A stretch of 672 nt of DNA from a phage: sequence record OP745095.1; one strand, 5' to 3'. Position 1 is the stretch's first letter. Every line of letters starts with the position of its first letter. A program made the position numbers and the translations under genes. Under the pieces are notes generated by a model that had not been told where the DNA came from, did no database searches, and saw only the letters and a list, made by a program, of their open reading frames with translations. Shown piece after piece: positions 1 to 672 of this stretch.

Positions 1-672
1 ATGGCGCTGCCGAACGGCAGCCAGATTTTTATTGAACAGACCCGCGCGGCGACCGAAATTGAAGCGACCGCGGTGAGCAACGCGGAAAACCCGGTGGCGA
101 CCGTGGCGAGCACCACCGGCATTGTGAAAGGCGATTATGTGCTGGTGCTGGAAAGCGTGTGGGCGGCGTTTAAAAACCGCGTGATGCGCGTGAAAGAAGT
201 GACCCTGGATGCGAGCATTACCCTGGAAGGCGATAAAAACACCAGCACCGCGGATCTGAACAAATTTCCGGCGGGCGGCGCGAGCACCTTTGTGAAAATT
301 GAAAGCTGGATTGAAATTCCGTGCGTGAGCGATATTGCGAAAAGCGGCGGCGAACAGCAGTTTTATACCAAACAGTGCCTGAGCGATGATCGCGAAAAAC
401 AGATTCCGACCTTTAAAAGCGCGACCAGCATTGCGTATACCTTTGATTTTGATTATAGCAACCCGATTACCCAGCTGCTGATTGGCTATGATGAAGATGG
501 CAAAACCCGCGCGATGCGCATGTTTGTGCCGAAAGCGAGCTATCCGATTCGCACCTTTAGCGGCACCCCGAGCTTTGATGATATTCCGAACACCGTGATG
601 AACGAAGATGAAACCACCATTCTGACCATTAGCCTGGATGGCAAATATACCCATATGAAAGAATTTGTGGCG
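1..672 (+). CDS. Partial CDS (open at the 3' end): putative phage major tail tube protein, lambda gpV-like, N-terminal tube-forming domain
   Basis: Seen in sequence: ATG at 1-3 and frame +1 open through 672 (224 codons, no stop), while frame +2 has TGA at 74-76 and frame +3 has TGA at 33-35. Translation begins MALPNGSQIFIEQTRAATEIEATAVSNAENPVATVASTTGIVKGDYVLVLESVWAAFKNRVMRVKEVTLD and ends TILTISLDGKYTHMKEFVA. Alternating hydrophobic/polar runs (IFIEQ, YVLVLESVW, STFVKIESWIEI, SIAYTFDFDY, TILTISLDG) suggest a beta-sandwich fold. From memory of lambda gpV: SIAYTFDFDYSNPITQLLIGY resembles [20 protein letters not shown], and DGKTRAMRMFVPKASYPIRTFSGTPS resembles [24 protein letters not shown]. The family call is motif-level recollection, not a computed alignment. 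Confidence 0.5.
   Translation, partial: MALPNGSQIFIEQTRAATEIEATAVSNAENPVATVASTTGIVKGDYVLVLESVWAAFKNRVMRVKEVTLDASITLEGDKNTSTADLNKFPAGGASTFVKIESWIEIPCVSDIAKSGGEQQFYTKQCLSDDREKQIPTFKSATSIAYTFDFDYSNPITQLLIGYDEDGKTRAMRMFVPKASYPIRTFSGTPSFDDIPNTVMNEDETTILTISLDGKYTHMKEFVA

Follow-up and report, generated by a model that had tools for sequence, protein, structure and literature searches.

The window analysed here, a stretch of 672 nucleotides from sequence record OP745095.1, is a single open reading frame (ORF) of 224 codons without a stop codon, the complete coding sequence of a major tail (tube) protein (1-672, on the plus strand, as are all features of the window given below). Its 224-residue translation shows 100% identity to gp63 (YP_009789945.1) of Escherichia phage vB_EcoS_ESCO41 (hereafter ESCO41), a 50.8 kb phage of the Drexlerviridae, genus Nouzillyvirus, whose source was chicken caecal content. 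The role of gp63 was already known to the extent that RefSeq annotates it as "major tail protein". Every amino acid in the window is written with one codon only (GCG for 20 of 20 alanines, CTG for 11 of 11 leucines), so that the DNA is a synthetic back-translation, unlike the native gene (KY619305/NC_047820, 18169-18843), in which codon usage is mixed and a TAA stop closes the frame. Only the protein is therefore informative, the short ORFs in other frames are artefacts, the base composition is meaningless, and nothing at the nucleotide level of this stretch is biological.

It is nearly certain that the protein encoded here is the major tail tube protein of ESCO41, a T1-like siphovirus, and a member of Pfam family PF08813 (Phage_tail_3; "Phage tail tube protein, TTP"). 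The match of gp63 to that family scores 161.8 bits, where the cut-off is 24.2, with an expectation value (E) of 1.4e-47, and spans residues 52-219 and profile positions 1-163 of 165. Against PHROG 584 (major tail protein) the match has E 4e-76; NCBIfam has no model for gp63. Relatives were found by tblastn in 1159 phage records, chiefly of Escherichia and Klebsiella phages, and PF08813 is carried by all 120 homologs among the matches listed. A sequence search of the PDB returned the tube proteins of T1 (gp41; 9l0f, E 1.4e-68) and FCWL1 (9jlf/9kmh, E 3.7e-68), both about 54% identical to gp63 and solved by cryogenic electron microscopy (cryo-EM), followed by "gp15" (10lj, E 7e-19) and phiXa gp9 (9lbn, E 1.1e-12), which make up the four sequence-distinct solved members of PF08813 in the PDB copy searched. 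An AlphaFold2 model of gp63, with a predicted local distance difference test score (pLDDT) of 77, matched the same structures in Foldseek (9jlf, E 8.5e-21; 9l0f, 1.5e-20; 9lbn, 1.3e-10), with the FCCH domains (first catalytic cysteine half-domains) of ubiquitin-activating enzyme E1 next, at about 1e-3. The protein has the phage barrel fold of PF08813, that is, a beta-sandwich flanked by one helix and bearing a long beta-hairpin arm, and its gene sits where siphoviruses have it, with the tail terminator gene on one side and the chaperone and tape measure genes on the other, the order in ESCO41 being head closure, tail completion, tail terminator (gp64), gp63, chaperone-like ORFs, a 968-residue tape measure protein, and minor tail proteins. 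Identity, family membership, fold, gene order, and the gpV homology and key-residue conservation described below were all established on gp63 itself.

Family profiles, solved relatives, structure matches and the link to the lambda tube protein gpV together identify gp63 as a subunit of a non-contractile tail tube of the kind built from stacked hexameric rings, and nothing was found that contradicts a tail tube identification. The original prediction, read from the letters of the window, had placed the protein in the non-contractile tail tube family on the strength of a resemblance to gpV, and had proposed profile searches of Pfam and the PDB and a comparison of a predicted structure with gpV by DALI or Foldseek as checks. 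Both kinds of search returned siphovirus tail tube proteins at significant values, with T1-type tubes far ahead of gpV in the structural comparison, so that its interpretation is supported and the observation behind it partly confirmed, as set out in the next section.

The domain limits of gp63 were obtained by carrying over those of T1 gp41 through the sequence alignment, with a shift of five residues at the hairpin. In T1 gp41 the beta-sandwich comprises residues 2-15, 95-113 and 135-218, an Ig-like (immunoglobulin-like) domain covers 16-94, and the beta-hairpin covers 114-134 (PMC11945409). By transfer, the sandwich of gp63 is built from three segments, the first of them, residues 2-16 (nucleotides 4-48), providing the first barrel strand ahead of the insertion; the model has a strand that begins at residue 7. 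The inserted decoration domain, an outward-facing FCCH-like or Ig-like beta-barrel, takes up residues ~17-99 (49-297), with nothing equivalent to it in the gpV N-domain. A barrel strand bearing W103 and C108 follows (residues 100-118; 298-354), placed by both hhalign and BLASTP alignments, then the long beta-hairpin arm to the neighbouring ring (residues ~119-139; 355-417), and then the C-terminal bulk of the sandwich with its lumen-lining barrel (residues 140-224; 418-672), in which the model shows strand 143-149, helix 155-166 and strands 170-175, 183-192, 205-212 and 217-219.

The barrel core and lambda gpV

The original prediction singled out nucleotides 427-564, residues 143-188 (SIAYTFDFDYSNPITQLLIGYDEDGKTRAMRMFVPKASYPIRTFSG), as a conserved core resembling a block of gpV. 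Its coordinates and quoted sequences are exact, the gpV string being precisely residues 81-123 of that protein (J02459, 8955-9695). Three of its four motif patterns, LL..[WFY], G.TRA[YM][KR][IM].[FV]P and [VT]F.G, occur once each and in the same order in gp63 and gpV when tested literally. The first, KSA..S[FI]..[LY].[WF], has no literal match in either protein as written and needs a variable gap, with which KSATSIAYTF faces KSAGDTSFTLAW.

Taken as a pair, the two proteins are only marginally similar. BLASTP aligns gp63 103-180 with gpV 36-116 at 22% identity over 81 columns (E 0.005). Their Smith-Waterman score of 49 compares with 31 +/- 5.3 in composition-preserving shuffles, of which 26 in 2000 reach it; when only the 46-residue segment is aligned, the score is 37, with shuffles at 18.4 +/- 3.8 and 2 of 2000 attaining the observed value. 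At the profile level the similarity is robust. An hhalign comparison of an 89-sequence family profile (25-72% identity to gp63; representatives clustered at 50% identity) with a gpV-family profile gave a probability of 95.2% and E 2.4e-8 over 114 columns, gp63 101-217 opposite gpV 34-150. When the same 89-sequence profile was run against 177,635 PDB sequences, the four PF08813 structures came first and the next six were all lambda-type gpV chains (9mfe, E 3.9e-5; 7t2e, 4.2e-5; 2k4q, 4.9e-5; 7t4f, 1.7e-4; 6p3e, 1.8e-4; 9e7m, 8.5e-4); beyond the family and these chains nothing in that search was significant (E 0.03 or worse). In structure, the gp63 model matched gpV entries 7t4f, 8k36, 7t2e and 8k35 with E 2-4e-3, a Foldseek probability of 1.0 and a template modelling (TM) score of about 0.45 normalised to gpV.

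The computed alignments share one register. Those by BLASTP, Smith-Waterman, hmmsearch and hhalign (with the shallow and the deep profiles alike) run ungapped, at an offset of 64, from K139/K75 to A179/G115, after which hhalign places a two-residue insertion (S180, Y181) and then pairs T185-F186-S187-G188 with V119-F120-R121-G122. Since every computed alignment shares this offset, the equivalences originally drawn for KSA, for G.TRA...P and for TFSG/VFRG hold. Two others slipped: S143 had been set opposite S81, two positions away from the computed A145-S81 pair, and the LL-LL pairing was one off, L160 facing L96. A model of a 99%-identical gpV homologue (AlphaFold2, pLDDT 72), from which the gpV secondary structure was taken, is collinear with that of gp63 at offsets of 64 and 66, strand 143-149 corresponding to gpV 78-86, helix 155-166 to 92-102, strand 170-175 to 106-111, and strand 183-192 to 117-127.

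A second parallel, drawn upstream between W54-T68 of gp63 (WAAFKNRVMRVKEVT; nucleotides 160-204) and W36-T46 of gpV, does not survive. By BLASTP, hhalign and Pfam coordinates gpV W36-T46 falls opposite W103-A113, and residues 54-68 sit in the inserted decoration domain (16-94 in T1 numbering), which the gpV N-domain lacks. The local score of this parallel, 25, was equalled by 6 of 500 shuffles, so that it amounts to a local similarity at chance level; gpV W36 has its true counterpart in W103, a tryptophan in 75 of the 89 family representatives.

Several results are weak points of the link to gpV or of the model. With 23.8 bits (E 3.7e-5) on the PF08813 profile, gpV falls a little short of the Pfam cut-off of 24.2, and gp63 has no match to PF16461, the family of gpV, at E<=10 in Pfam. 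With shallow profiles (relatives at >=51% identity to gp63, against gpV relatives) hhalign gave a probability of only 4.7%. Big_2 and Ig-domain matches crowded the reciprocal Foldseek search, made with a model of full-length gpV, and its top 50 listed no T1-type tubes. Finally, the gp63 model has pLDDT below 50 over residues 111-140, leaving the hairpin arm at low confidence, as is expected of an arm that takes on order only once the tube is assembled. The reciprocal search and the shallow comparison do not contradict the deep-profile result.

That residues 143-188 resemble gpV by chance, or through convergence of amphipathic beta-strands, is very improbable. Such a reading has to contend with the deep-profile hhalign match and its 114 collinear columns, with the gpV chains being the only non-family matches of E below 0.001 in the PDB search, and with an hmmsearch control in which gpV scored 24.3 bits and none of 2000 shuffled gpV N-domains more than 10.3; four methods, moreover, agree on one register, the order of secondary structure elements is identical, and Foldseek gives its full probability. 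The resemblance was accordingly rejected as a chance one. Kinship of this depth could also be read as membership, gp63 then being an orthologue of gpV within PF16461 (Phage_TTP_12), in keeping with the motif-level similarity over residues 139-188 and with the secondary PF08813 match that many gpV-family proteins carry among their precomputed domains. Against this stand the absence of any PF16461 match for gp63 at that threshold, where gpV itself scores 235 bits and gp63 has its strong PF08813 match; the lack of a C-terminal Big_2 match in gp63; an FCCH-like insertion that gpV does not have; and the low pairwise identity. The missing PF16461 match refutes this assignment, and its probability is close to nil: of the kinship originally proposed, the homologous core stands, and gpV's own family does not, gp63 belonging to PF08813. 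An equally negligible chance attaches to gp63 being some other phage-barrel protein (distal tail, baseplate tube, myovirus inner tube or Hcp-like), which was considered and rejected.

The conclusion reached, on which hhalign, hmmsearch and secondary structure concur, is that the strand-helix-strand-strand unit at the core of the barrel, residues 143-188 (427-564), shares true, clan-level homology with gpV N-domain residues 79-122. PF16461 is presumably a member of clan CL0504. PF08813 has been placed in that clan (PMC13576161).

Ring contacts and proposed assembly

The closest characterised relative of gp63 is gp39 of Escherichia phage vB_EcoS_NBD2 (PDB 9toz/9toi), 82% identical to it without gaps, both proteins having 224 residues. 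Straight and bent gp39 tubes solved by cryo-EM consist of hexameric rings with a rise of 40.8 Å and a twist of 23.8 degrees, a lumen of 40 Å and an outer diameter of 125 Å, and in the gp39 monomer an FCCH domain facing outward and a beta-hairpin arm accompany the barrel domain (PMC13576161). In that tube a disulfide links C108 of one subunit to C126 of another in the ring next to it, as seen by cryo-EM and verified by Raman spectroscopy with and without tris(2-carboxyethyl)phosphine (TCEP) and by the lower melting temperatures of the less thermostable C108S and C126S mutants (PMC13576161); an inter-ring disulfide was also reported for T1 (PMC11945409). Further contacts described for gp39 are an inter-ring salt bridge, D149-K124, and an intra-ring salt-bridge hub, R184-E204, the roles of the conserved residues being drawn from cryo-EM, Raman and melting-temperature data (PMC13576161).

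The only two cysteines of gp63 are C108 and C126, which correspond to the pair whose inter-ring disulfide has been published for NBD2 gp39 and T1 gp41. The codon of C108, on the beta-sandwich, lies at nucleotides 322-324, the same position as C108 of gp39, and that of C126, on the hairpin arm, at 376-378 (PMC13576161). All 37 relatives at 51% identity or more have both cysteines; among the 89 broad representatives 6 have both and none has one alone. This strict co-occurrence agrees with the published account, in which the disulfide-bearing clade is single and makes up about 14% of PF08813 (PMC13576161), and gp63 carries the cysteines of that clade, represented by gp39, T1 gp41 and FCWL1. Also retained in gp63 are G6, V109, K124, L127, D149, R184 and E204 of gp39, with D149 and R184, both ring-contact residues in gp39, lying within the core 143-188. 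By analogy with gp39 and T1 gp41, a C126-C108 disulfide is predicted to join adjacent rings of gp63.

Hexamer stacking, disulfide and tube geometry are all carried over from gp39 and T1 gp41, and on the strength of their cryo-EM structures (PMC13576161, PMC11945409) we infer that gp63 forms stacked hexameric rings as well. Six beta-sandwich barrel domains (residues ~2-16, 100-118 and 140-224) would join as a ring whose inner beta-barrel lines a DNA channel of about 40 Å. The rings would stack helically, polymerising around the tape measure protein from the tail tip to the tail terminator cap. From each subunit the hairpin arm (~119-139) would extend to the adjacent ring, where C126 on the arm may be locked to C108 by the disulfide, and the inserted FCCH-like domain (~17-99) would decorate the exterior of the tube.

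Neighbouring genes and annotation of relatives

Many GenBank orthologues of gp63 are labelled "tail fiber(s) protein" or "hypothetical protein", probably through propagated misannotation; examples are found in MZ826699 (P817), OL449681 (p111), ON062054 (P818), OR767160 (XT34), OR472545 (50EP), PP069513 (BUCT-XGG-1), OQ850291 (ULIM2) and MN296515 (Sfin-3). A different kind of label looks odd in MG065675 (A118), MG065669 (A123) and 19 more records of about 50 kb, described as Campylobacter jejuni phages: their T1-type tube protein is 53% identical to gp63, near the level of enterobacterial T1-like phages, and a Campylobacter host is unexpected for Drexlerviridae-like genomes. Three longer family representatives (P0242, 628 residues; P0245, 505; P0262, 621) match the full tube protein in their first ~210 residues and have 300-400 extra C-terminal residues, which may represent fusions, or else long extensions of decoration or Ig-repeat type. 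Lom domains (PF06316, PF13505) occur together with the gpV tube domain PF16461 in three further proteins (P0164, P0165 and P0209), which are annotated "Ail/Lom family outer membrane beta-barrel protein" and are probably gene-call or assembly chimeras in Escherichia coli prophages.

Within ESCO41 itself, the region ~18918-19546 of NC_047820.1 (9750-10378 in the numbering of locus L002, used for the positions that follow) contains a 105-residue ORF annotated as a tail length tape measure protein. This ORF ends in GTA AAA AAC TAA, with a slippery heptamer, A_AAA_AAC, directly before the stop codon; between ~9989 and 10378 the -1 frame stays open, with an ORF of 69 residues that has no annotation, and PHROG 17368 covers both ORFs. 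Judged from these signals, the pair looks like a lambda G/GT-type tail assembly chaperone with programmed -1 frameshifting that is mislabelled, and partly unannotated, in RefSeq. Two other genes of the structural module, one for an HNH endonuclease between the head morphogenesis and protease genes (3655-4137) and one for endonuclease VII among the minor tail genes (13718-14227), are probably mobile or homing elements.

Comparison with known tube systems

The significance of gp63 reaches little beyond correct annotation, a 2026 paper having detailed its 82%-identical orthologue, including the inter-ring disulfide (PMC13576161). What the present analysis adds is that a reader given the bare sequence caught a true remote homology to gpV at ~22% identity, that the register and the upstream claim could be corrected, and that many GenBank orthologues are probably mislabelled "tail fiber(s) protein". 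A broader proposal, that PF08813 and PF16461, the T1-like and lambda-like tubes, are specific sisters and that the FCCH-like domain has an adhesion role of its own, is tentative and rather unlikely as it stands. No sequence-detectable link comparable to that with gpV was seen from gp63 to other solved tube proteins outside PF08813. Were the two families sisters, one ancestral barrel would have been decorated twice independently, in the T1 lineage with an FCCH-like domain inserted after strand 1, in lambda with an Ig-like domain at the C-terminus; an adhesion role of the former, if true, would act on the cell surface. Both ideas would be modest extensions of published work, which had already described the T1 tail tip as lambda-like and catalogued five PF08813 architectures.

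With NBD2 gp39, gp63 shares the barrel with its FCCH-like insertion and beta-hairpin arm, the C108/C126 pair, the contact residues and the gene neighbourhood. It differs by 40 substitutions, among them Q8 for K8, a bend-contact residue of gp39, and the phages belong to different genera, NBD2 to Vilniusvirus and ESCO41 to Nouzillyvirus. The T1 and FCWL1 tube proteins have 222 residues and show short indels relative to gp63 in the decoration domain and after K178. Other members of PF08813, MED16 gp13 (PDB 9to0) and phiXa gp9, at ~23-33% identity, lack the C108/C126 pair, and engineering a cysteine pair into MED16 gp13 raised its thermostability (PMC13576161). The decoration domain of gp63 has the six-stranded beta-barrel fold of the E1 FCCH; this is a likeness of fold only, at 8-17% identity, the domain of gp63 being an external decoration of a virion tube with no enzymatic context, and the authors of the T1 structure term the same domain Ig-like (PMC11945409).

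The N-domain of lambda gpV (PF16461; 2k4q, 6p3e, 8k36, 7t2e) has a beta-sandwich core homologous to that of gp63, with W103/W36, KSA at 139-141/75-77, G167.TRA/G103.TRA, P177/P113 and F186.G188/F120.G122 in common. The two proteins agree in the order of their elements (strands, arm, strand, helix, strands), in their role as subunits of a hexameric tube, and in a gene placed ahead of the G/GT chaperone and tape measure genes. They part in their decorations, gpV bearing a C-terminal Big_2 Ig-like domain (residues 161-239) where gp63 ends with the barrel domain, and gp63 having its FCCH-like domain inserted after the first strand. They part, too, in how rings can be joined, since gpV, with no cysteines at all, has no inter-ring disulfide of the kind predicted for gp63.
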